From a virus (taxonomy: Duplodnaviria; Caudoviricetes), in IMG/VR virus record IMGVR_UViG_3300032334_001433, positions 1-64,000 of that record: 64,000 nucleotides of DNA; one strand, 5' to 3'. The position numbers and the translations under genes were made by a program. Below, piece by piece: positions 46,630-63,405 of the stretch. Within the stretch, counting starts at the first letter, position 1. Every line of letters begins with the position of its first letter. Under the pieces are notes generated by a model. It had not been told where the DNA came from and did no database searches. It saw only the letters and a list, made by a program, of their open reading frames with translations.

Positions 46630-46658
46630 ATTATAGCACCTTTTGTCCATTGTGTCAA
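46630..46658 (-). promoter_or_regulatory. sigma70 early promoter (leaderless)
   Basis: TTGACA-17-TATAAT, ATG exactly 7 nt downstream. Confidence 0.85.
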
Positions 46659-47405: not shown

Positions 47406-47470
47406 GTATCCGACTCTTTTGCTCGGATACTTACTTTTTGCTTGACACGATGACCAAAAAGTGCTATAAT
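47406..47470 (+). promoter_or_regulatory. stem-loop + sigma70 early promoter cassette
   Basis: GTATCCGA..TCGGATAC; TTGACA 47442-17-TATAAT 47465; then TGAGGCTTAAACAGTAAGGAAC. Confidence 0.85.
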
Positions 47471-47497
47471 TGAGGCTTAAACAGTAAGGAACACGAA

Positions 47498-47806
47498 ATG
47501 GCAAAGCTCTTAATTTCTACTCAGATTCACGAAAACTATGGCGCCCATGATTGGGACGGCGTAGGTGAATGCCCGCAATACTGGAAAGCCAAGGGCGGCA
47601 GTGATTATGTCGTTAAGAAGTTTAAAGGCGATGCTACTATGGCTATCATGGGTCTGCGTTCGCAAATTGAATGCGATGACGAGTACTATCGCGAATCCAT
47701 TATTGATTGGAAAATCGTTCCTAACGATTATATGACCGAGTTTGAAAAAGATCAGCTCGACTATATGGGTAAGATTCAGTTCGCTCCTAAAGAACTCGTT
47801 TGGTAA
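47498..47806 (+). CDS. conserved phage hypothetical protein
   Basis: KL.I.TQ..ENYGAHDWDG.GECPQYWK.KGG..Y. Confidence 0.75.
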   Translation: MAKLLISTQIHENYGAHDWDGVGECPQYWKAKGGSDYVVKKFKGDATMAIMGLRSQIECDDEYYRESIIDWKIVPNDYMTEFEKDQLDYMGKIQFAPKELVW

Positions 47807-47816
47807 TATATATTAT

Positions 47817-47987
47817 ATGTCCTACACAGTATTCAAAAATTCTAAAGAATTCGGACCTCGTAAAGGTCTTGAAGGTCCTTTCCATTATCGAAATGGCAGA
47901 GTTCTATATTACGATCCTAAAGAAGGAAAGTATTATGATCCTTTGACAGATTTCTATGTAGAATATGAAGAAGTTAAAGACTTATAA
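47817..47987 (+). CDS. conserved small phage protein
   Basis: GLEGPF.Y.NG.VLYYDPKEG.YYDP.TD.Y; ATG 47817. Confidence 0.7.
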   Translation: MSYTVFKNSKEFGPRKGLEGPFHYRNGRVLYYDPKEGKYYDPLTDFYVEYEEVKDL

Positions 47988-48092
47988 ACTAACCAATAAT
48001 AAAATCTATGCATCAATACTTTTCATATTTGTATTGTATGTCACAGTATCCGTATTTGCTTTGGGATTGTTGGATTACCTGCTCTACGCAAA

Positions 48093-48218
48093 ATGAAACA
48101 CATACTAGTAAACGCAGTTAGAGAAATGCTAGAACGTCATTGGGACGTCTATGAGATTGCAGCAAAGCTGAATTTAGATGTTAACCTAGTTCAGCAAATA
48201 ATTGACCTGTTAACCTAA
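48093..48218 (+). CDS. 41-aa HTH-like peptide (not in track)
   Basis: VREMLERHWDVYEIAAKLNL. Confidence 0.5.
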   Translation: MKHILVNAVREMLERHWDVYEIAAKLNLDVNLVQQIIDLLT

Positions 48219-48232
48219 AAGGAATTTTTGTT

Positions 48233-48475
48233 ATGGAAAAACCAGTAGTCCAATATGTCGGAGAAGCCAAGGTATATGTTTGGCCTTATTCTCCAGAAGA
48301 CAAACCAGTCTATGTCGCCCGCATACCTTTGGCTTTAAATCATCCAACACTAGGCAAATGCCCCGATATTAGAACATCTCGAATTGTCAAACAACCAGAT
48401 GAGTCTGGTCGATTTGAAACCCTCAACACAATATATGAAAAAGTAGAAAGTGAAGATAATCATGGAAATGAATGA
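48233..48475 (+). CDS. hypothetical protein
   Basis: HP.LG...IRTS.IV...FETLNT.Y. Confidence 0.65.
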   Translation: MEKPVVQYVGEAKVYVWPYSPEDKPVYVARIPLALNHPTLGKCPDIRTSRIVKQPDESGRFETLNTIYEKVESEDNHGNE

Positions 48476-48725
48476 ATATGTAAAAGAGCTCGAGGCTCAA
48501 GTTGACCCAACCTTTGTTGAAAAGATTAAAGATTGGCCAGTAGAAACAAAACTCTATATGTACTTGCACAATATTCAATTGGCAATGATGAAAGAGTTTA
48601 AAGAAAATCAAGTTGTATTTCCTAAAGTACCAGCTAAAGACTTTATGCAATGGCGTATGCCAAAGATTGAATATCTAGGTTATCCTACTCCAGGTACTAC
48701 AACTTATGAATACAAGCAAGGTTGA
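48462..48725 (+). CDS. hypothetical protein
   Basis: Operon packing; start 48462 or 48468. Confidence 0.55.
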   Translation: MEMNEYVKELEAQVDPTFVEKIKDWPVETKLYMYLHNIQLAMMKEFKENQVVFPKVPAKDFMQWRMPKIEYLGYPTPGTTTYEYKQG

Positions 48726-48891
48726 TAAACTCTATAAGATTGCAATGGTTCAAGACGGTATAGAGTCTGAAAGAGATCTTATACACGCATTCGCCGAGTT
48801 GATTGTTCGAGAATGTGCTGATATTGCTGCCGATCATGATGGGTTGGATATTTACGAAGAAATTAGAGAACATTTCGGAGTTCAAGAATGA
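48706..48891 (+). CDS. hypothetical protein
   Basis: FAELIVRECA...I.EHFGV motif. Confidence 0.65.
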   Translation: MNTSKVDKLYKIAMVQDGIESERDLIHAFAELIVRECADIAADHDGLDIYEEIREHFGVQE

Positions 48892-49079
48892 AAATAACAG
48901 AAGTGCAAGCACATAACACTCGTATTCATAATGAAGTCGTTAGAACAGAACGAATTCATAATGAACAACTAAACAAGCATCGTCTTGAGAAATTGCGTCA
49001 AGTTGATACTGAGGAAAAACGTATTGAAGCAAATCGGCGCATGAATCGCGCTGGTCAAAATATAGATAGGATGGCATAA
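48888..49079 (+). CDS. hypothetical protein
   Basis: ATGA overlap; GQNID..A. Confidence 0.6.
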   Translation: MKITEVQAHNTRIHNEVVRTERIHNEQLNKHRLEKLRQVDTEEKRIEANRRMNRAGQNIDRMA

Positions 49080-49235
49080 TGATAAAATATATTGCATTAT
49101 TCTTGGCAATAATAACCGCATTTCAAATGTATCAATTTTGGGATTCGGCATTATTTGATGTATGGTGTGTTGGATTCACAGGTTGGCTTAATGTATTTAT
49201 CTATGAGTTAGAAAAAGAAAAGAAAAACATTGCGA

Positions 49236-49472
49236 ATGTCGCATAAAGATATTATTTGGATTGTTGCCGGAAATCGAGAGGAATTTCATTCGTATGTACG
49301 TCGCAAAATGCCATTAGGACATGATCCAAATAATTATAAGTTTGTATATTCTGTCGATCAATTGCGTGGATTAAATAGTATCAAAGGTTTCTATATTGGA
49401 AACTACAAATCAAGAAAAGATATTAATATTATTCAAGCAATTATTAATGTAATTAAACTTTCAGAAACTTAA
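49236..49472 (+). CDS. hypothetical protein
   Basis: I.IVAGN..EF...V..V.QLRG. Confidence 0.55.
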   Translation: MSHKDIIWIVAGNREEFHSYVRRKMPLGHDPNNYKFVYSVDQLRGLNSIKGFYIGNYKSRKDINIIQAIINVIKLSET

Positions 49473-49570
49473 CATCTTTTCCCTTCCTTGTCAACCTTTT
49501 TATAGTACCCGAGTCTTTTGCTCGGGTACTTCACTTTGTGCTTGACACTCTGCTCAAAAGGTGCTATAAT
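49466..49570. promoter_or_regulatory. bidirectional promoter cassette with central stem-loop
   Basis: Minus TTGACA(49489-94)-17-TAAGTT; GTACCCGAG-tcttttg-CTCGGGTAC; plus TTGACA 49542-17-TATAAT 49565. Confidence 0.8.
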
Positions 49571-49596
49571 TGAGGCTTAAACAGCAACAGGAGTAG

Positions 49597-49803
49597 ATGA
49601 TGCGTGAACAGACAACGAAACTTCTAGATATGATGGCCGAGGGATTGATCTCTGCAGAAGCAGTTGCAGATATGTGTCTTGCCTATATGAGTGAAGACGA
49701 TGTGGCAGATATGATGCGGTCCAACGACATTGTTGACTATGATGAAGATGATGGTCAGCCCGACGAAGCCCAGGAATGGGAATCGTTTGACCCAGATTGC
49801 TAA
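49597..49803 (+). CDS. hypothetical early protein
   Basis: L.YMSEDDV.DM; DGQPDEAQEW..FDPDC. Confidence 0.7.
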   Translation: MMREQTTKLLDMMAEGLISAEAVADMCLAYMSEDDVADMMRSNDIVDYDEDDGQPDEAQEWESFDPDC

Positions 49804-49818
49804 TAGAAAGGATAATAT

Positions 49819-49983
49819 ATGTGGATAGTACAAGTTTACGATACAGTTGAAGCAACATTCAAGTATGAGGAATTTCGCAATCGCAAGGCTGCAGAATCCT
49901 ACGCTGAAGATTTTGAAATTATCGCTAGTCTGTATGGACAGGCTGGACGCTATACAAAGATATCAGTTCAGTACATGAGTTAA
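49819..49983 (+). CDS. 54-aa hypothetical protein (not in track)
   Basis: AAAGGA SD, ATG 49819 to TAA 49983. Confidence 0.55.
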   Translation: MWIVQVYDTVEATFKYEEFRNRKAAESYAEDFEIIASLYGQAGRYTKISVQYMS

Positions 49984-50036
49984 CCCTTCGGAGCAAAGGG
50001 TCTTTGCTTGACATTTGACTCCAACGGTGCTATAAT
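49983..50036 (+). promoter_or_regulatory. stem-loop + sigma70 early promoter
   Basis: ACCCTT..AAGGGT; TTGACA 50008-17-TATAAT 50031. Confidence 0.85.
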
Positions 50037-50062
50037 AGAGACATAAACAGTAAGGAACTTAT

Positions 50063-50251
50063 ATGACACGAGAAGAAGCTAGAATCGCACAAGAACAAGC
50101 AGTTGCAGAATTCTTGGCAAAAGGTGGAATGGTTGAGGTGTTGAAGGGTCGGAAGAATCCGAAACCCGTTAGTGCCCGAGGCAAATTCAATTCTGGAATG
50201 AAAATTCGAATGGACCCAACGGCCCGTTTCCCTAGCAAAACTTACGCTTAA
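50063..50251 (+). CDS. hypothetical early protein
   Basis: AVAEFLAKGG.V..L. Confidence 0.65.
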   Translation: MTREEARIAQEQAVAEFLAKGGMVEVLKGRKNPKPVSARGKFNSGMKIRMDPTARFPSKTYA

Positions 50252-50260
50252 GGATTTTAT

Positions 50261-50482
50261 ATGATTGCAGAACAGACACAATACGATACTCGACATGGCG
50301 GACCCTTTGACCGGGGCAGTGCAGATTCCTATTACAATCGAGAATATTCTCCGCATTACTACACAGGTGATACCTACAATAGCAATCGGATTGATTTGAA
50401 AGATATGACTGCGGCTGAGATTACAGCATACACCGCAGGATACAATGAGAACGAAGAATCGAGCAACAAGAAAGCTTGGTAG
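50261..50482 (+). CDS. conserved phage hypothetical protein
   Basis: HGGPFDRG.ADSYY.R...PHYY...EI.AY.AGY..NE. Confidence 0.75.
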   Translation: MIAEQTQYDTRHGGPFDRGSADSYYNREYSPHYYTGDTYNSNRIDLKDMTAAEITAYTAGYNENEESSNKKAW

Positions 50483-50483
50483 T

Positions 50484-50546
50484 ACCCAAGCAATCCGTAG
50501 GGTCTCTTTCTGAATGCTTGACAAGATGACCAAAAGGTGCTATAAT
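50484..50546 (+). promoter_or_regulatory. stem-loop + sigma70 early promoter
   Basis: ACCC-12-GGGT; TTGACA 50518-17-TATAAT 50541. Confidence 0.85.
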
Positions 50547-50572
50547 TGAGGCTTAAACAGTAAGGAACTTAT

Positions 50573-51160
50573 ATGGCAAGATACGAAATTACCCCTTTTA
50601 ATTTGGCTGACATTGGTTATAATGGACATGGTTCAATCCGTATTAAGGTTGAGGGTTATTGGTCTCAGGATGTCATTACCCTTTATATTGATCGCGCATA
50701 TGGTTCTAATGGATGGACCGTTAAGCTTTCTCATTCCTCCGGTGGTCGAGATACCAAAGTAATAGAGTGCGATATGGAAGCAGAAATGAATTTTGCTACA
50801 GCACTTAATGTGATGGCTAAAATTGGTCTTGATATTAAGACAACTAAGTTAGGTATGCTGGAAGAAAATTATCAGCGCAGAATCAAAGACGACAAAGAAC
50901 GCCTTGAGAAAGAAAAGGCAGAATTTGCTGCAGCTGTCGCGGCTGATAAAGAAATTGGAATTGCGTTGGCTCGATATAAATTAGATACCATAGGCGATTT
51001 CGGTGAATTGAAAGTATTTGCCCGCGGAACAGATAAAATCCGTCGATTCTCAGTATCGCATCGGGTTAAAAAGACATTCTTTCTGCAGGGAATGCGAATT
51101 TCCAAGCAGGAAGCAATTGTAGAGTTGGCAAAATGCTCAACTCGTGAAGTAACTATCTAA
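50573..51160 (+). CDS. hypothetical early protein
   Basis: 195 aa directly after promoter and AAGGA SD. Confidence 0.75.
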   Translation: MARYEITPFNLADIGYNGHGSIRIKVEGYWSQDVITLYIDRAYGSNGWTVKLSHSSGGRDTKVIECDMEAEMNFATALNVMAKIGLDIKTTKLGMLEENYQRRIKDDKERLEKEKAEFAAAVAADKEIGIALARYKLDTIGDFGELKVFARGTDKIRRFSVSHRVKKTFFLQGMRISKQEAIVELAKCSTREVTI

Positions 51161-51170
51161 GGAAAACATT

Positions 51171-51428
51171 ATGAATCAGATTCAAAAAGAAGCCGCCCTA
51201 TACGTGGCAAAAGTAATTAGTTTGGCAGTTGGCGTAGGAATGGTAACGTGTTTATCAATACTTTATATTGGTATGACAGAAACGTTTTTATTAATCGCCG
51301 GGTTATTGCTAGTTAATCTGGCATTTGCCGCATTCGAGAATAAAGTAAAAGAATTGGAACACTTGGAACGCATGAATGAAATTGCAGCTGATCGAGAAAA
51401 ACGTATGGCTGAATTGAATGCAAAATGA
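51171..51428 (+). CDS. two-TM membrane protein
   Basis: Two hydrophobic segments then coiled coil. Confidence 0.7.
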   Translation: MNQIQKEAALYVAKVISLAVGVGMVTCLSILYIGMTETFLLIAGLLLVNLAFAAFENKVKELEHLERMNEIAADREKRMAELNAK

Positions 51429-51451
51429 ATTAAACAAGCGTTTGCTACATT

Positions 51452-51652
51452 ATGAACGATCAGCTTAGAAAATTTTATCGTTTATCTGGACTTGACATCT
51501 ATGGTCTCGGAACAGATAGAGAGAAATGGGAAGCAGCAGTCAACAGATATACTGAGTTCGTTATCAGGGAGTGTGGGTGTTATCTCCTTGAAAATGAGGT
51601 AGTAGACATTATGGATGTGATTGGTATGGAAGATCACTTTAAAGGAAAATAA
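51452..51652 (+). CDS. hypothetical protein, distant paralog of 48706
   Basis: EFVIREC...EDHFK vs ELIVREC...REHFG. Confidence 0.6.
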   Translation: MNDQLRKFYRLSGLDIYGLGTDREKWEAAVNRYTEFVIRECGCYLLENEVVDIMDVIGMEDHFKGK

Positions 51653-51653
51653 A

Positions 51654-51851
51654 ATGGCAAAAGAAAAAATCAACGAAAACTTCAACCTGAGCTTCTCTTC
51701 ACGGGATAGTAATACTAGCGATACTATTATGGATTGCAATATCAGTTTTGAAAATCCACGAGACGACCATGCAGTCGTATCTAAGATTGCTACTTGGCTT
51801 GTAGCAATTGGTCGGACCAATATCGCAGTTCGAATTGTGAATCCAAAATAA
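51654..51851 (+). CDS. hypothetical protein
   Basis: AAAGGA SD, ATG 51654. Confidence 0.6.
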   Translation: MAKEKINENFNLSFSSRDSNTSDTIMDCNISFENPRDDHAVVSKIATWLVAIGRTNIAVRIVNPK

Positions 51852-52009
51852 TATGTTCTTCTGGACAATTGTAATCCTCTCAACGAACATTACCTATATT
51901 GGTCAGTTTGAGGATGAGATCAAATGCAATAAAGCTGTAGAAGCGATTAAGACACAATATATTAAAGCGGCATGCGTTCAAGTCAAAGCGCCCGAACCTA
52001 AGAAATAAT

Positions 52010-52225
52010 ATGAGTATGATGATGAAAAGAGTAGTAACAATGTGCGATCCGCCTAGTGGGTGGAAATGGGGATTTCCGAAAGTAATGCCGGAAGGTCTAA
52101 TTGGCAAAGCATTTGACGAGTGGCTAATAAGCGAAGGAATGCCCAGGTCAGAAATTGATTATTGGAATAATAGTCAATTGGGTTATATGCCTATACGATG
52201 CTGGAATGAGGAGTTTGACGAATGA
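52010..52225 (+). CDS. hypothetical protein
   Basis: DPPSGWKWGFPK..P...WL..EG.P. Confidence 0.65.
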   Translation: MSMMMKRVVTMCDPPSGWKWGFPKVMPEGLIGKAFDEWLISEGMPRSEIDYWNNSQLGYMPIRCWNEEFDE

Positions 52226-52479
52226 GTTATAGTCGTTGGAGTGATAGTGTTTGGCATAGTTTTTATAATGTGAATGGTAGGTTAAGTCTGTGGTATGATA
52301 TGGATCGTATTATAGATTGGACTGAGGGTGAATTGTTAGAACTTATGTCACTTGAACAAAAAGAGATTGTCGAAACATTAATGGAGACATATGGTTGCCT
52401 GGAATCTGAAGCAATTGAAGCCATTGAATATATCGAGCTGTTTCTAGAAGAGTATGATCCTGAATTAGATATAGAGTAA
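52222..52479 (+). CDS. hypothetical protein
   Basis: MSYSRWS.S.W; ATGA overlap. Confidence 0.65.
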   Translation: MSYSRWSDSVWHSFYNVNGRLSLWYDMDRIIDWTEGELLELMSLEQKEIVETLMETYGCLESEAIEAIEYIELFLEEYDPELDIE

Positions 52480-52692
52480 TATGATTAGTTTTATTATGGG
52501 ATATATCGTAGGAGTCTTGTATATGTGCTATCGTAGTAATGAAGAACAAAAGGTCAATATACCATGATAGAAATACTAGTAATAATGATCGTTTCTTTGG
52601 CAATAAAGATAAGTATCGTATATACTATGAAATCAAGATATAGTAAGTATTGATCGAATATTGCTATAATATAGCATATACTGTATATAGAC

Positions 52693-52712
52693 TGTGGATA
52701 ACCTGTGGATAG
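52693..52712. promoter_or_regulatory. tandem DnaA boxes
   Basis: TGTGGATAA (exact reverse complement of TTATCCACA) + CC + TGTGGATAG (1 mismatch) in non-coding DNA. Confidence 0.6.
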
Positions 52713-52858
52713 AGATCGCAGAGTTCTCTAAAATCGAGCCTAAAGAAAACTCTGTATTTATACGGTAGAACAATGGTTCAGATTCTATACGACCGTATCA
52801 GATTATAAACGGCAGAGTAATAATCTAAACTCGCGAGTCACCAAATAGATCTCTATGT

Positions 52859-52962
52859 TCTATAACATCTTTTCCCTCCCCTGTCAACCTTTTTATAGTA
52901 CCCATACACCCTGCAGGGTCTTTAAACTAATGCTTGACGATCTGACCAAAAGGCGCTATAAT
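52859..52962. promoter_or_regulatory. bidirectional promoter cassette
   Basis: Minus TTGACA(52882-87)-17-TATAGA; ACCC-12-GGGT; plus TTGACG 52934-17-TATAAT 52957. Confidence 0.8.
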
Positions 52963-52988
52963 AGAGGCATAAACAGTAAGGAACTTAT

Positions 52989-53246
52989 ATGAACAGCAAA
53001 CAGATCGCAATGTATGGTATGACCGAAGCAGACATCAAAGCACAGTATATGGAGTCTATTACAGCAAAGTTCTCCGGTCTGGAGATGGTTGTAGCGGGCA
53101 TTCTAAGCGATTGTCAAGAGATGAATCAGTATCAGCACGCTGCAGCAGTGAATCAAGAAGCCAATAAAGAGCGGATTCGTCAGCAGTTGAACGTAGCAAA
53201 GTTCATTCTGTTCGATATGATGGATCAGCGTGGTCATAGCGTATAA
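52989..53246 (+). CDS. hypothetical early protein
   Basis: After promoter, AAGGA SD; RQ.LN.AK..L. Confidence 0.7.
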   Translation: MNSKQIAMYGMTEADIKAQYMESITAKFSGLEMVVAGILSDCQEMNQYQHAAAVNQEANKERIRQQLNVAKFILFDMMDQRGHSV

Positions 53247-53256
53247 GGAACCAGTT

Positions 53257-53430
53257 ATGTCGTATTTCTCGAATCTCTACAATTTGATTACAGAGGCCAT
53301 TGAGATGGACATGGGGAAGTATAATATAATAGATCTGATGATAGATGAGGGAATCCCTGCAGAGGCGGCTCCTATTATATTAGATCAGTTCATTAAGTCG
53401 AAGGGATCGTATCCCCTAGGCGCCGAGTGA
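53257..53430 (+). CDS. hypothetical protein
   Basis: AAGGA SD before ATG 53257. Confidence 0.55.
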   Translation: MSYFSNLYNLITEAIEMDMGKYNIIDLMIDEGIPAEAAPIILDQFIKSKGSYPLGAE

Positions 53431-53451
53431 GAAATTCTCGGCAACTAAAGT

Positions 53452-53685
53452 ATGGAGAATGGTATGAAAGTGTATTCGTTGGTGTCGTTCGTAGACTATG
53501 AGGGTTACTATCTGGTGGGTATATACGGATCTCTAGAGGACTTGATGAAGTACGTAGAAGACGGTAAGTGGTACGTTGATCGCCTGGGATACGTAGAGTC
53601 TGAGCTGGGGGAGGAGATAAACGTAATGGCTGAGGTAGTGTACGTGCCCTTTGTGAATTCTAGTAATGAGCAGGTAATGGTATAA
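53452..53685 (+). CDS. hypothetical protein
   Basis: VYSL....YEG..L.G.Y.S motif. Confidence 0.6.
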   Translation: MENGMKVYSLVSFVDYEGYYLVGIYGSLEDLMKYVEDGKWYVDRLGYVESELGEEINVMAEVVYVPFVNSSNEQVMV

Positions 53686-53686
53686 G

Positions 53687-53748
53687 ACCCTACAGCCCAA
53701 AGGGTCTTTTGGAAAGTGCTTGACGATCTGACCAAAAGGTGCTATAAT
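53687..53748 (+). promoter_or_regulatory. stem-loop + sigma70 early promoter
   Basis: GACCCT..AGGGTC; TTGACG 53720-17-TATAAT 53743. Confidence 0.85.
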
Positions 53749-53776
53749 TGAGGCATAAACAGCAACAGAGGTGTAT

Positions 53777-54685
53777 ATGAAAGTAGCAGTCAAATTCAAC
53801 AAAGCAAAGAATCGTTTCGAAGGATTCGTGGATGGCAAAATGGTAACACGTTCAAAGCATGAGATGTACGTCAAGAACGTTCTAGCTAGCATGGGTCTAG
53901 AGGTCGAAGAGTCCACAGGTCTCGTGAACAATCAGCCCAAGATTGACGAGTTTGGCATCAATAAGCGCTTTGAGTTCGTTCAGCAGATGGTCACAATGGT
54001 TGGTAAGAAGACTATTGCCTCAGCGATCATCACAGGTCAGGGTGGTCTGGGTAAGACGCACACAGTGTTGAAGTCGCTCAAGGCTCAGGGCTTGATCGAT
54101 ACTACAGACCTCGCCTCGTTCGAAGAGGGTTACAAGTTTAACTCTTCGAAGTCTTATCGTGTTGTCAAAGGTTACAGCACAGCAAAAGGTCTCTATCGTA
54201 CGTTGTTCGAGGGTAACGGACAAGTGCTCGTGTTCGACGACTGCGACAGTGTTCTCAAAGATCCCGTAGCGTTGAACTTGCTCAAGGGTGCCCTGGACTC
54301 TTACGGTGAGCGCTGGATCTCCTGGAACGCAGACATGAAAGACGAAGATCTGCCCCGTTCCTTCAAGTTCACAGGTTCCATTGTGTTCATCAGCAACATG
54401 GACGCTGATCGTATAGACCAAGCAGTGAAGACACGCGCTATGTGCGTTGACTTGTCCATGACACAGATGCAGAAGCTAGAGCGCATGGAAGTGATCATGA
54501 AAGAAGACGAATTCCTGCCTGAGTACAGCATTAATTTTAAGCAAGACGCTTTGAATTTGCTTAAAGAAGTAGCAAATACAGTAGACAATCTGTCTCTGCG
54601 TTCGTTGATTGCGGTGACGAAGATTCGCGCTGAGAATGAGAACTGGAAAGATCTGGCTCGTTACATCGTCAGTGCCGGGGCGTAA
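53777..54685 (+). CDS. P-loop (AAA+/SF3-like) ATPase
   Basis: Walker A GQGGLGKT, Walker B VLVFDDCD, IVFISN, R. Confidence 0.8.
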   Translation: MKVAVKFNKAKNRFEGFVDGKMVTRSKHEMYVKNVLASMGLEVEESTGLVNNQPKIDEFGINKRFEFVQQMVTMVGKKTIASAIITGQGGLGKTHTVLKSLKAQGLIDTTDLASFEEGYKFNSSKSYRVVKGYSTAKGLYRTLFEGNGQVLVFDDCDSVLKDPVALNLLKGALDSYGERWISWNADMKDEDLPRSFKFTGSIVFISNMDADRIDQAVKTRAMCVDLSMTQMQKLERMEVIMKEDEFLPEYSINFKQDALNLLKEVANTVDNLSLRSLIAVTKIRAENENWKDLARYIVSAGA

Positions 54686-54686
54686 A

Positions 54687-54740
54687 GCCCTACAGGGCAA
54701 AGGGTCTTTGCTTGACCCTCTGTCCATTATGTGCTATAAT
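54687..54740 (+). promoter_or_regulatory. stem-loop + sigma70 early promoter
   Basis: CCCT..AGGG; TTGACC 54712-17-TATAAT 54735. Confidence 0.8.
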
Positions 54741-55899: not shown

Positions 55900-55928
55900 T
55901 TGACACTTAACAGAAAAGATGTTATAAT
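55900..55928 (+). promoter_or_regulatory. sigma70 promoter (leaderless)
   Basis: TTGACA-17-TATAAT, ATG 55935 at +1. Confidence 0.85.
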
Positions 55929-55934
55929 AGTACT

Positions 55935-56123
55935 ATGAATGCCAAAGAACGATTAGAAACAGTCGAGGACCTTAAGGGTCTTTTAAAGCTCTTGAACGAG
56001 GGTAAGTACTGGGACGGACGCAGTTGGATCTATCAACTTATTATTCCGCATCGGTTCGTGCCGTATATCGACGGACTAGAAAAAGCAATTAAACTACTGG
56101 ACGATACCGAAGATGAACTATAA
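55935..56123 (+). CDS. hypothetical protein
   Basis: Starts at predicted TSS. Confidence 0.6.
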   Translation: MNAKERLETVEDLKGLLKLLNEGKYWDGRSWIYQLIIPHRFVPYIDGLEKAIKLLDDTEDEL

Positions 56124-60543: not shown

Positions 60544-60933
60544 ATGACTATGCACCTTATTGGACCTTGGCTTTCTACAAACGGAAAGAAAAAAGGTAAA
60601 GTTAAATTTAAAAGCGCCGAAGAGGCTAAACGTGCGCGGCAACTTGATAAAGAATGGGTTGCTATGAAAAAGAAGTGGGGCGTTGAAGCAGAAGAGAAAA
60701 AACGTAAGCAGGCAATGTCTGCAGAAGTTTTGAAATATTCTCTTGACATTCCTGCAGGGCGTAGTACTGCCCACATCAAAAGTCTTAATCAAGACAACGG
60801 AGTTGCTGTTCTAGCACCCGCAAAAAAATATACAGGAACTAAAGTATTGGGTATTGGTACGATGCATAAATCTAACGCAGTACCTATCTTTAGTGATGAC
60901 GAAGCAAAAGAAATTTCATCTATGAGGCGATAA
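60544..60933 (+). CDS. conserved phage hypothetical protein
   Basis: YTG..V.GIGTMHKSNAVP...A.EIS.MRR. Confidence 0.8.
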   Translation: MTMHLIGPWLSTNGKKKGKVKFKSAEEAKRARQLDKEWVAMKKKWGVEAEEKKRKQAMSAEVLKYSLDIPAGRSTAHIKSLNQDNGVAVLAPAKKYTGTKVLGIGTMHKSNAVPIFSDDEAKEISSMRR

Positions 60934-61277
60934 TGAGTATAACAACACGCAATTGGGGATATTATAATGTATTATATACCTACGGAAAAGAAGTTAAACT
61001 TAAAGAATTAACTATAGATCCCGGTAAATGTTTAAGTATGCAAAAACACAAAGATAGAGCAGAACATTGGTTTGTTGCTGAAGGTACTGCAACAGTCTAT
61101 ACTTTGGATGTTAGCACAGATGTTGAGCTATATGGAGTATTTGATAAATTTCAAAGCCTACATATACGCAAAGAAGAGTGGCACCAACTTTGCAACGAAA
61201 CTGATGCACCATTGAAAATTATTGAAATCCAGTATGGATATAATTGTATTGAAGATGATATTATAAGGAAAAATTAA
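60933..61277 (+). CDS. cupin, mannose-6-phosphate isomerase C-terminal-like
   Basis: R.WG.Y..L, LSMQKH..RAEHW.V..G.A, WHQL.N, L.IIEIQYG....EDDI.R. Confidence 0.85.
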   Translation: MSITTRNWGYYNVLYTYGKEVKLKELTIDPGKCLSMQKHKDRAEHWFVAEGTATVYTLDVSTDVELYGVFDKFQSLHIRKEEWHQLCNETDAPLKIIEIQYGYNCIEDDIIRKN

Positions 61278-61759: not shown

Positions 61760-61788
61760 TTGACACGAGTACTATTTTCTGTTATAAT
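61760..61788 (+). promoter_or_regulatory. sigma70 promoter (leaderless)
   Basis: TTGACA-17-TATAAT, ATG 61795 at +1. Confidence 0.85.
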
Positions 61789-61794
61789 AGAGAC

Positions 61795-61941
61795 ATGAAA
61801 CAAGTAAAAAAACTTCCTGTTAGAAATTTTGTTGCGAAAGATCTTCGTACACCAAAATATCGTCTGAAAGTTGTTGAACTTAAAACTCGTTACAAACGTA
61901 AGGCAAAAACTCAAAATGACTACAATCTCCAATATCTTTGA
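61795..61941 (+). CDS. 48-aa basic ArfA-like peptide
   Basis: NFVAKDLRTPKYRLKVV...YKRKAK resembles ArfA NAIEALLHDPLFRQRVE...YMRKGK. Confidence 0.5.
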   Translation: MKQVKKLPVRNFVAKDLRTPKYRLKVVELKTRYKRKAKTQNDYNLQYL

Positions 61942-63238
61942 TTCGCTTGCAGCAGACAATTCTCGTCTGGCTAAAGAAGCAATTCTAACTTGGAACAAGG
62001 ATAATAAAGATCTTCAACGAGCAATTAAACTTGCGCTTGATCCTTTGATTAGTTTTTACATTCGCAAGATTCCATCCTATACTGCAAAAGGCAAAAAAAC
62101 TTTGTCTTGGGCAATGGATCAAATTGAGAATGAACTGGCTACTCGTAATGTTACTGGCCATGCCGGTATTGACCTATTGACTAATGTATTGGAATCATTA
62201 AATGAAGCAAACGCCAGCGTTATTGAAAAAATCATCAAGAAAGATCTTCGATGCGGAGTATCTGAGGCAACAGCAAATAAAATCTGGCCAAAGCTTGTCT
62301 CAACCTATCCGGTTATGTTGGCTTCTGGATTCGAGCAAAAACTTGTCGACAAAATTAAATTCCCTGCGTACTGTCAGTTAAAATTGGATGGTATGCGTTT
62401 TAACGCAATTGTGCGTAACGGCACAGTAGAATATAGGAGCCGAAATGGCCGAGAACTTTCTATTCCGAGTAAGTTGTTTAGTGACGCAATACTCAAACTT
62501 GCTAGTTATTATGGTTCCGATTATGTGTTTGATGGCGAACTACTTGTTGTAGATTCTGCAGGTAAACCGTTAGATCGTAAAACAGGCAACGGTATTCTTA
62601 GCAAAGCTGTTAAGGGTACTATGTCTGATAAAGAAGCGACAATGGTTCGTGTAACATTATGGGATGCAATTCCTTTTACTGCCTTTCAAATAGGCAAATA
62701 TACTACACCGTATAACGATCGCTTTATGGAATTGATACAAAATATTGATTTCCTTAAAGGTGCATCTGCAATAGGACATCTTGTAGATATTGTGTGGACT
62801 AAGGAAGTTAATAATCAGTATGATGCACAAAAGATTTTTGAGAAGTTTCTTGCTGAAGGTCAAGAAGGAACTATCCTAAAATCCAAGACAAATATCTGGG
62901 AAGACAAACGTTCTAAAGAACAGATCAAGTTTAAAGGCGAACTCGATTGCGATCTTAAAGTTGTTGATTGGGTTGAAGGTACAGGTAAAAATGTAGGTCG
63001 TCTCGGAGCACTTGTATGTGAATCCGAAGATGGCAAAATTCAAGTGAATGTTGGATCAGGATTTACTGATGATGAGCGAGATTCAATTGGTAAAGATGTT
63101 ATTGGTAAAATTGTGTCAGTAAAATATAATGCTCGTATTAAGGATCGTGGCGATAATGTTGAACGATTGTTCTTGCCAATTTTTATTGAGCTTCGTTTAG
63201 ATAAAACAAAAGCAGATATGGAAAATAAAATCAAATGA
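61916..63238 (+). CDS. gp30: ATP-dependent DNA ligase
   Basis: KLDGMR, VFDGEL, WDAI, EGTILK, K.K, VGSGF, LFLPIF; start at ATG 61916. Confidence 0.95.
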   Translation: MTTISNIFDSLAADNSRLAKEAILTWNKDNKDLQRAIKLALDPLISFYIRKIPSYTAKGKKTLSWAMDQIENELATRNVTGHAGIDLLTNVLESLNEANASVIEKIIKKDLRCGVSEATANKIWPKLVSTYPVMLASGFEQKLVDKIKFPAYCQLKLDGMRFNAIVRNGTVEYRSRNGRELSIPSKLFSDAILKLASYYGSDYVFDGELLVVDSAGKPLDRKTGNGILSKAVKGTMSDKEATMVRVTLWDAIPFTAFQIGKYTTPYNDRFMELIQNIDFLKGASAIGHLVDIVWTKEVNNQYDAQKIFEKFLAEGQEGTILKSKTNIWEDKRSKEQIKFKGELDCDLKVVDWVEGTGKNVGRLGALVCESEDGKIQVNVGSGFTDDERDSIGKDVIGKIVSVKYNARIKDRGDNVERLFLPIFIELRLDKTKADMENKIK

Positions 63239-63405
63239 AAAAATGGTCTGTTAAAATAGAAGAAGATCCTGAAACAGGAGAAGCTATACTAAACTTTCCT
63301 TTTGATTTTTTAGAAGAAACAGGTTGGAAAGAAGGCGATACTCTTATATGGGAAGATCTTAAAGATGGCACTTGGGCTTTAAGTAAAAAAGGTGATAAAA
63401 ATTAA
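63235..63405 (+). CDS. AbrB/MazE-like small DNA-binding protein (not in track)
   Basis: IEED.ETGE.IL.FP.DFLE..GW.EGD.L.W...DG.W.L.K. Confidence 0.7.
   Translation: MKKWSVKIEEDPETGEAILNFPFDFLEETGWKEGDTLIWEDLKDGTWALSKKGDKN

Follow-up and report, generated by a model that had tools for sequence, protein, structure and literature searches.

ArfA is a peptide with which bacteria release ribosomes trapped on broken messages. Known also as YhdL (PF03889; PDB 5H5U, 5MDV, 5U4I, 5MGP) and found in gamma- and betaproteobacteria, it is small and basic and has no fold alone, properties shared by the phage peptide described here. Its residues 27–30 form an added strand on RF2, F25 provides RF2 selectivity, P23 stacks on A1492/A1493, L19, L24 and F25 grip RF2 W319, and A18 must be small so that the N-terminal minidomain orders and RF2 opens (PMC8012679, PMC5378476). 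The basic residues 31–48 fill the mRNA channel, and truncation at residue 47 is tolerated while truncation at 40 is not (PMC8012679, PMC5378476). An A18T mutant binds RF2 without activating it (PMC5378476), activity drops only a little with K34C and withstands single mutations in the channel part (PMC4245945, PMC8012679), and the C-terminal loop obstructs the channel and sets the limit on mRNA length (PMC8012679). Non-stop ribosomes are likewise supplied with a release factor by the small adaptors BrfA (Bacillus subtilis) and ArfT (Francisella), and adaptors of this kind are often species-specific. BrfA, which works through an added strand, one aromatic residue and a basic tail, is unrelated to ArfA in sequence (PMC6881298). 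A recent survey counted ArfA in 0 of 2,376 Alphaproteobacteria and in 37 of 1,000 Betaproteobacteria (PMC11633108).

Phage ArfA genes are already annotated and in print, named by similarity only: Citromicrobium phage RXM gp10 (PMC8953757), pelagiphage HTVC027P gp30, which is highly expressed both early and late in infection (PMC12753301), J2-1 ATN93434.1 and a gene of Brevundimonas phage Bambus. At the loci we read, these are short, phage-encoded homologs with ordinary stops, as is our peptide; unlike it, most retain KG(K/R)GS and are matched by PF03889. Other cultured phages carry ArfA-like genes that are misannotated or unannotated. In Salmonella phage Arash the gene is labelled 'ribosomal protein L2' (L071:1417-1641), in pf16 and RsoM2USA it was missed and an opposite-strand ORF called instead (L072:1486-1638 and L076:1534-1656), and in Cr30 it is uncalled (L075:1468-1617).

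The window, the whole stretch of 64,000 nucleotides that we analysed, covers the opening 64 kb of a virus record that is complete at 202,665 bp (36.6% GC). Judged by its gene content (RNase H, DsbA regulator, ligase) the phage is T4-like; we found no close cultured phage, the top ligase matches being about 41% identical, and lake-type samples appear to be the main source of its relatives. A permuted two-piece tmRNA of betaproteobacterial type with the tag ANDELFALAA lies 5 kb downstream of the locus, outside the window (record 66826–67091; L112:3827-4092), and weakly suggests a betaproteobacterial host; a host search using this tmRNA returned tRNA-like fragments as its sole matches. No release factor, ArfB or SmpB was found in the phage genome. 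The record also has 26 tRNA genes (150709–170898) that cover all 20 amino acids, most of them in a single array at 165.5–168.2 kb, and L112:5517-6715 holds neighbouring ORFs of 174 and 224 aa that by eye resemble a pair made up of a heme oxygenase and a bilin reductase of the ferredoxin-dependent kind. Close to the locus, window positions 60933–61277 encode the cupin half of a gene alone, where relatives L116, L367 and L368 carry a 255-aa cytidylyltransferase-cupin fusion.

A predicted sigma70-type promoter, TTGACA-17-TATAAT with an extended −10 TG, occupies positions 61760..61788 on the plus strand; it matches at 12 of 12 positions and is kept in nine close loci, the total of promoter-like sites across the region being at chance level (21 versus 21.9 in shuffles). 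The 48-aa ArfA-like gene of the DUF7230 family follows at 61795..61941 (plus strand), with its ATG at the predicted +1 and an ordinary TGA stop. A sequence-only reading of this DNA had described a 48-aa basic peptide lacking KKGKGS, ended by a normal stop and placed ahead of ligase. All of this was borne out: the ORF with the quoted residues is present in translation, the motif is missing, the stop is ordinary, and promoter, peptide ORF and an overlapping ligase start succeed one another.

The gap between the −10 box and the ATG is 6 nt (the ATG begins 7 nt past the last T), too short for a Shine-Dalgarno (SD) sequence, and both promoter and 6-nt gap are conserved across the nine close loci with differing gap letters. 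Gene callers prefer a 61-aa version that starts at ATG 61756. We rejected that version: in L116 and L117 an in-frame TAA breaks the longer frame and the short ORF is intact, which supports the start at 61795. Over codons 10–36 pN is 0–0.024 versus a pS of 0.16–0.56 (0.05 in a near-identical pair). Since pN lies far below pS, promoter spacing is conserved and the 61-aa frame is interrupted, ORF 61795–61941 is a real protein-coding gene under purifying selection.

Translation in the close phage lineage is very probably leaderless, and the transcript would be an early one, as had been proposed. Among the 40 near-consensus promoters of the genome, three place a reading-frame ATG likewise (46658 on the minus strand, 55900 and 61760), and in the commonest promoter class an SD lies within a leader of about 26 nt. 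The other two, at window positions 46658 (minus) and 55900–56123, are also perfect promoters with the ATG 6 nt beyond the −10 box; no Pfam family matches the 62-aa product at 55935. Window positions 47442–54740 hold a run of near-identical strong promoters whose leaders of about 26 nt contain AAGGA, an arrangement typical of regions of hyperplastic early-gene cassettes. Distant phages with identical gene order (L012, L036) have a 16-nt leader with an SD upstream of the peptide, so the leaderless start is not family-wide. The leaderless transcript and ligase context stand as traits of the close lineage and fall as properties of the DUF7230 family. In yet another lineage (L011:2992-3030, L015, L155, L197) a TTGACA...TATAAT promoter lies across the first DUF7230 codons, TATAAT being read as Tyr-Asn; there is no start codon past +1, and the peptide would need an upstream transcript, with the inner promoter serving the next genes.

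The downstream gene encodes an ATP-dependent DNA ligase of 440 aa (61916..63238, plus strand). Its start overlaps the final 26 nt of the peptide gene, so that the last eight peptide codons overlap the ligase start (ATG 61916), and the same 26-nt overlap is seen again in L006-L008, L116, L117 and L122. A weak, putative SD-like AAGG for ligase (61900..61903, plus strand) lies within codons 36–37, 12 nt 5′ of the ligase ATG; the corresponding distance in L116 and L117 is 5 nt. In two complete relatives (RNase H 73–74% identical) the same promoter leads through a 19-nt SD leader directly to ligase, and a search with a positive control found the peptide neither at that locus nor in the rest of either genome. 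Because the same promoter feeds ligase in these relatives without the peptide, the gene is an accessory gene sitting in the ligase leader. Elsewhere, genes of the DUF7230 family precede many unrelated genes, which suggests that the association with ligase reflects a shared strong host-polymerase promoter, not DNA repair. Translational coupling to ligase may well be a second role of the ORF. Immediately 3′ of ligase, window positions 63235–63405 hold a 56-aa AbrB/MazE-like ORF (weak PF04014, PHROG 661), with no adjoining toxin partner seen.

The peptide fits the whole DUF7230 model (PF23876) at about the cut-off, with 26.7 bits against 27 (E 6e-6, model positions 2–37 of 42). A relative 76% identical to it, P0009, scores 31.5 bits, 22 of 30 homologs match the model, and the peptide also matches two unannotated PHROGs, 2701 and 20887. 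Pfam files DUF7230 as function-unknown; our literature search found no mention of the name, no publication connecting the family with ArfA, and no report of an assay of any phage member or of any member lacking K34-G35-K36 (KGK). At least 516 relatives were confirmed on viral contigs, and further ones are present in cultured Acinetobacter and Rhodobacter phages and, amid housekeeping genes, on chromosomes of SAR86 and Pelagibacteraceae. In SAR86 (L037-L044) and Pelagibacteraceae or related bacteria (L050, L053, L055-L057) the ArfA-like genes have 35–44 codons, some with KGK and some without, and the SAR86 copies without KGK also neighbour housekeeping genes. This copy is an ordinary member of the family, and such phage genes are common.

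Likeness to ArfA, the central proposal of the sequence-only reading, was recovered by hhalign, an iterated HMM, a PDB profile search and bridge sequences, and was not recovered from the single sequence. The peptide alone had no match to ArfA by BLASTP, Pfam, NCBIfam or PDB phmmer, PF03889 had no match in the phage's own genome, and just one of the 30 homologs matches PF03889 (E 0.077). Profile alignment by hhalign of the 30 homologs to 29 cellular ArfA proteins, a set that leaves out one mis-extracted row (L087), gave a probability of 80% (E 1.4e-5, score 27.5), versus scores of 8.4 ± 2.0 for 150 column shuffles (none reaching 27.5) and 9.8 for the reversed profile. Removal of the two most similar ArfAs left a probability of 25% and a score of 20.1 versus 8.2, which exceeds all shuffles. 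The homologous core, peptide residues 10–39 (61822..61911, plus strand), is predicted by hhalign to align with E. coli ArfA 13–45 with K34-G35-K36 deleted. An HMM built from E. coli ArfA 1–55 alone takes in the peptide at round 2 (E 3e-4) and then converges; from the pool of 17,664 six-frame fragments, which is small and family-enriched, it admitted no decoy. Searched against 177,635 PDB sequences, profile A2 (34 KGK-less members, one row of which, J2-1, was originally retrieved by an ArfA query) matched ArfA chains exclusively (best E 0.03), and no BrfA chain was among the PDB matches of either A2 or the narrower profile A1.

Several sequences bridge the two families. The Pseudoalteromonas phage J2-1 protein has an E. 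coli-type N-terminus and no KGK and passes both cut-offs (41.3 against 25.5 for ArfA, 28.6 against 27 for DUF7230). Pelagibacteraceae chromosomal peptides combine the AKDLRTPKY motif of our peptide with KKGKGS, Ralstonia phage RsoM2USA combines the peptide's AKDLR start with KKGKGS, and both are above the ArfA cut-off; LRTP itself occurs in two gammaproteobacterial ArfAs. As a lead, with a recognition score under threshold, the ESM Atlas placed the peptide near a DUF7230 cluster (0.92) and a cluster in which 23% of members are labelled ArfA (0.91). On these comparisons we are highly confident that the peptide and DUF7230 are homologous to ArfA and form a divergent branch of it. On strict membership, judged from its sequence, the peptide is a DUF7230 protein and a homologous variant, not a PF03889 ArfA: it is phage-borne, scores under the PF03889 cut-off, and lacks the motif, the A18 patch and the non-stop control.

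Position by position, the peptide retains N14, I16, L20, P23, F25 (as Y), R26, R28 (as K), V29, K33, Y39, R41, K42 and K44 of ArfA. These include the RF2-binding P23, aromatic 25 and strand 26–30, kept as P20, Y22, R23, K25 and V26, and the basic channel tail Y39-x-R41-K42-x-K44, kept as Y33, R35, K36 and K38. The peptide has 32 residues beyond L20 and so reaches past N47, the limit below which activity is lost (PMC5378476). The face that activates RF2 differs: K15 stands in for A18, D16 for L19 and K21 for L24, which puts charges on two of the three residues of the L19/L24/F25 patch, and the KH pocket motif is KT (H45 to T). Histidine at position 45 is found in 55% of cellular ArfA and in 37% of the KGK-less branch; the equivalent position here coincides with the ligase start overlap, and in L117 the His codon itself provides the ligase ATG. 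K34-G35-K36-G37-S38 is invariant across the 29 sampled cellular ArfA, a set collected with a Pfam model that favours the KGKGS motif, and the peptide has a deletion of three of these residues (K34-G35-K36). Position 18 is A or S in all 29 and K in the peptide. The 102 KGK-less members share the changes at A18 (K or R in 95%), L19 (D in 97%) and L24 (K in 99%), the L20–F25 figures being partly circular because L24 lies within the motif used to collect the family; Y-x-R is in register in 82 of the 102. The peptide has a short basic N-terminus with no counterpart of the E. coli ArfA 2–16 minidomain, which a second cellular class (L101-L109) likewise lacks, and it has no hydrophobic 72-aa tail.

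AF2 gave the lone peptide no fold (pTM 0.24). Co-folded with residues 120–365 of E. coli RF2 as a stand-in, it gave weak support for binding, at 0.41 versus 0.02 for the best control, with contacts agreeing at 69% or more across runs and a partner pLDDT of at least 57, possibly through memory of solved ArfA-RF2 complexes. Of 80 solved pairs 58 attain the co-fold mark, as do 2 of 110 mismatched ones; just 7 of the 80 solved pairs, and both mismatches, attain it with a value of 0.60 or less, and a pass at the 0.41 level is wrong more often than right unless the pairing was likely beforehand.

Unlike arfA, the gene contains no internal hairpin. A search within and after the ORF found no arfA-like hairpin or terminator, the best local fold being −10.3 versus −19.5 kcal/mol for E. 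coli arfA, and we rejected an internal terminator or non-stop mRNA design. With no arfA-like hairpin there would be no tmRNA-based repression, and the description of the factor as constitutive fits the ordinary stop and the missing hairpin and terminator.

We considered whether the peptide is specifically linked to tmRNA. A tmRNA is present in 15 of 24 peptide carriers and in seven of the eight near-complete ones, and in 2.3% of cultured phages (PMC9004378). Control relatives chosen by other genes had tmRNA in eight of eight cases and the peptide in none (only two of these are complete), and we rejected a specific link. Carriage of tmRNA by all eight controls without the peptide marks it as a clade trait, and tmRNA is near-universal in this uncultured T4-like group. 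A clade-wide tmRNA counts against the peptide being a blocker of rescue and is not positive proof that it rescues.

Taken together, the peptide is best explained, with moderate confidence, as an unregulated RF2-dependent ribosome rescue factor that probably works like ArfA. It would be made from the first codon of a transcript that host polymerase starts at the ligase promoter. Where a ribosome has stalled on a stop-less message, the peptide's basic tail (K30, Y33, R35, K36, K38) would enter the vacant mRNA channel, residues 22–27 would extend RF2 domain 2/4 by one strand, Y22 standing for F25, RF2 would open and the nascent chain would be released untagged. Since its own mRNA has a stop codon, the peptide would escape the tmRNA hold placed on cellular arfA and accumulate whenever the promoter fires. 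The likely benefit would be that ribosomes caught on broken mRNA during infection become available again to phage translation, beside the phage tmRNA. The sequence-only reading further proposed that such a factor counters mRNA-cleaving abortive defences; our analysis turned up evidence neither for nor against this. We infer channel binding and RF2 contact from the retained residues and their structural counterparts; RF2 activation is the uncertain step. Activity is favoured on four grounds: free-living bacteria carry the altered residues in chromosomal genes, BrfA opens RF2 using a different N-terminus, ArfA tolerates single channel mutations, and the phage group devotes a tmRNA of its own to rescue.

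With K, D and K at positions 18, 19 and 24, the peptide may instead be the dominant-negative mimic that the sequence-only reading offered as its alternative. A blocker would fill the channel and keep RF2 closed, as ArfA A18T does, or exclude both tmRNA-SmpB and ArfB; host ribosomes that have stalled would then stay parked, or nascent chains would go untagged. Retention of the binding elements with change of the activating ones across 102 KGK-less members is what such a mimic predicts, as are a strong host-type promoter and freedom from non-stop control. We nevertheless consider it unlikely: the same substitutions occur in SAR11-type chromosomal genes with KKGKGS and in SAR86, a cell is unlikely to retain an inhibitor of its own rescue, and the phage's own tmRNA would be inhibited. 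BrfA moreover activates RF2 by a different N-terminus, with one aromatic stacking on the switch-loop Trp (PMC6881298), so activation could survive without the E. coli patch.

A shift in specificity seems slightly less probable again. Here loss of KGK would loosen the ceiling of about 3 nt of mRNA beyond the P site, or the peptide would work with RF1 or without any release factor, and it would act on ribosomes stalled mid-message, such as those left when a defence system cuts tRNA or mRNA. The deletion, fixed in more than 100 distinct members, does fall in the ArfA loop that sets the length limit (PMC8012679), and RF2 selectivity needs F25 plus a hydrophobic patch that is altered here. The argument is purely structural, however: the aromatic at the F25 position is retained, and with Y-x-R in register in 82 of 102 members the tail probably occupies the same pockets. 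Least probable of all, in our estimate, is that the ORF is a mere leader coupling ribosomes to the ligase start, or encodes a basic RNA-binding peptide unrelated to rescue. Its place between the ligase promoter and an overlapping ligase start with a weak SD would suit a leader, but selection acts on the amino acids and not on the frame alone (pN at most 0.024, pS up to 0.56, codons 10–36) and family genes precede many different genes. Mimicry of the uS14 N-terminus was suggested by a match of profile A1 (E 0.27); we rejected it, since the match spans 17 residues and is lost with the broader A2, with which ArfA alone remains, and the peptide has no cysteine, hence none of the zinc-finger cysteines of type Z uS14.

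If the preferred reading of the peptide as an active rescue factor holds, DUF7230, with its at least 516 viral loci and its members on SAR11-type and SAR86 chromosomes, would be a family of release-factor adaptors, and ArfA-type rescue would reach lineages scored as without ArfA (PMC11633108). Activity would also mean that rescue of this type can do without the invariant KGK turn and without the A18/L19/L24 face, and the DUF7230 peptide offers a direct probe of how ArfA opens RF2. Were it a blocker instead, it would be the first case of a virus inhibiting ribosome rescue in bacteria. What this copy adds is a clear picture of an accessory gene within a ligase leader.
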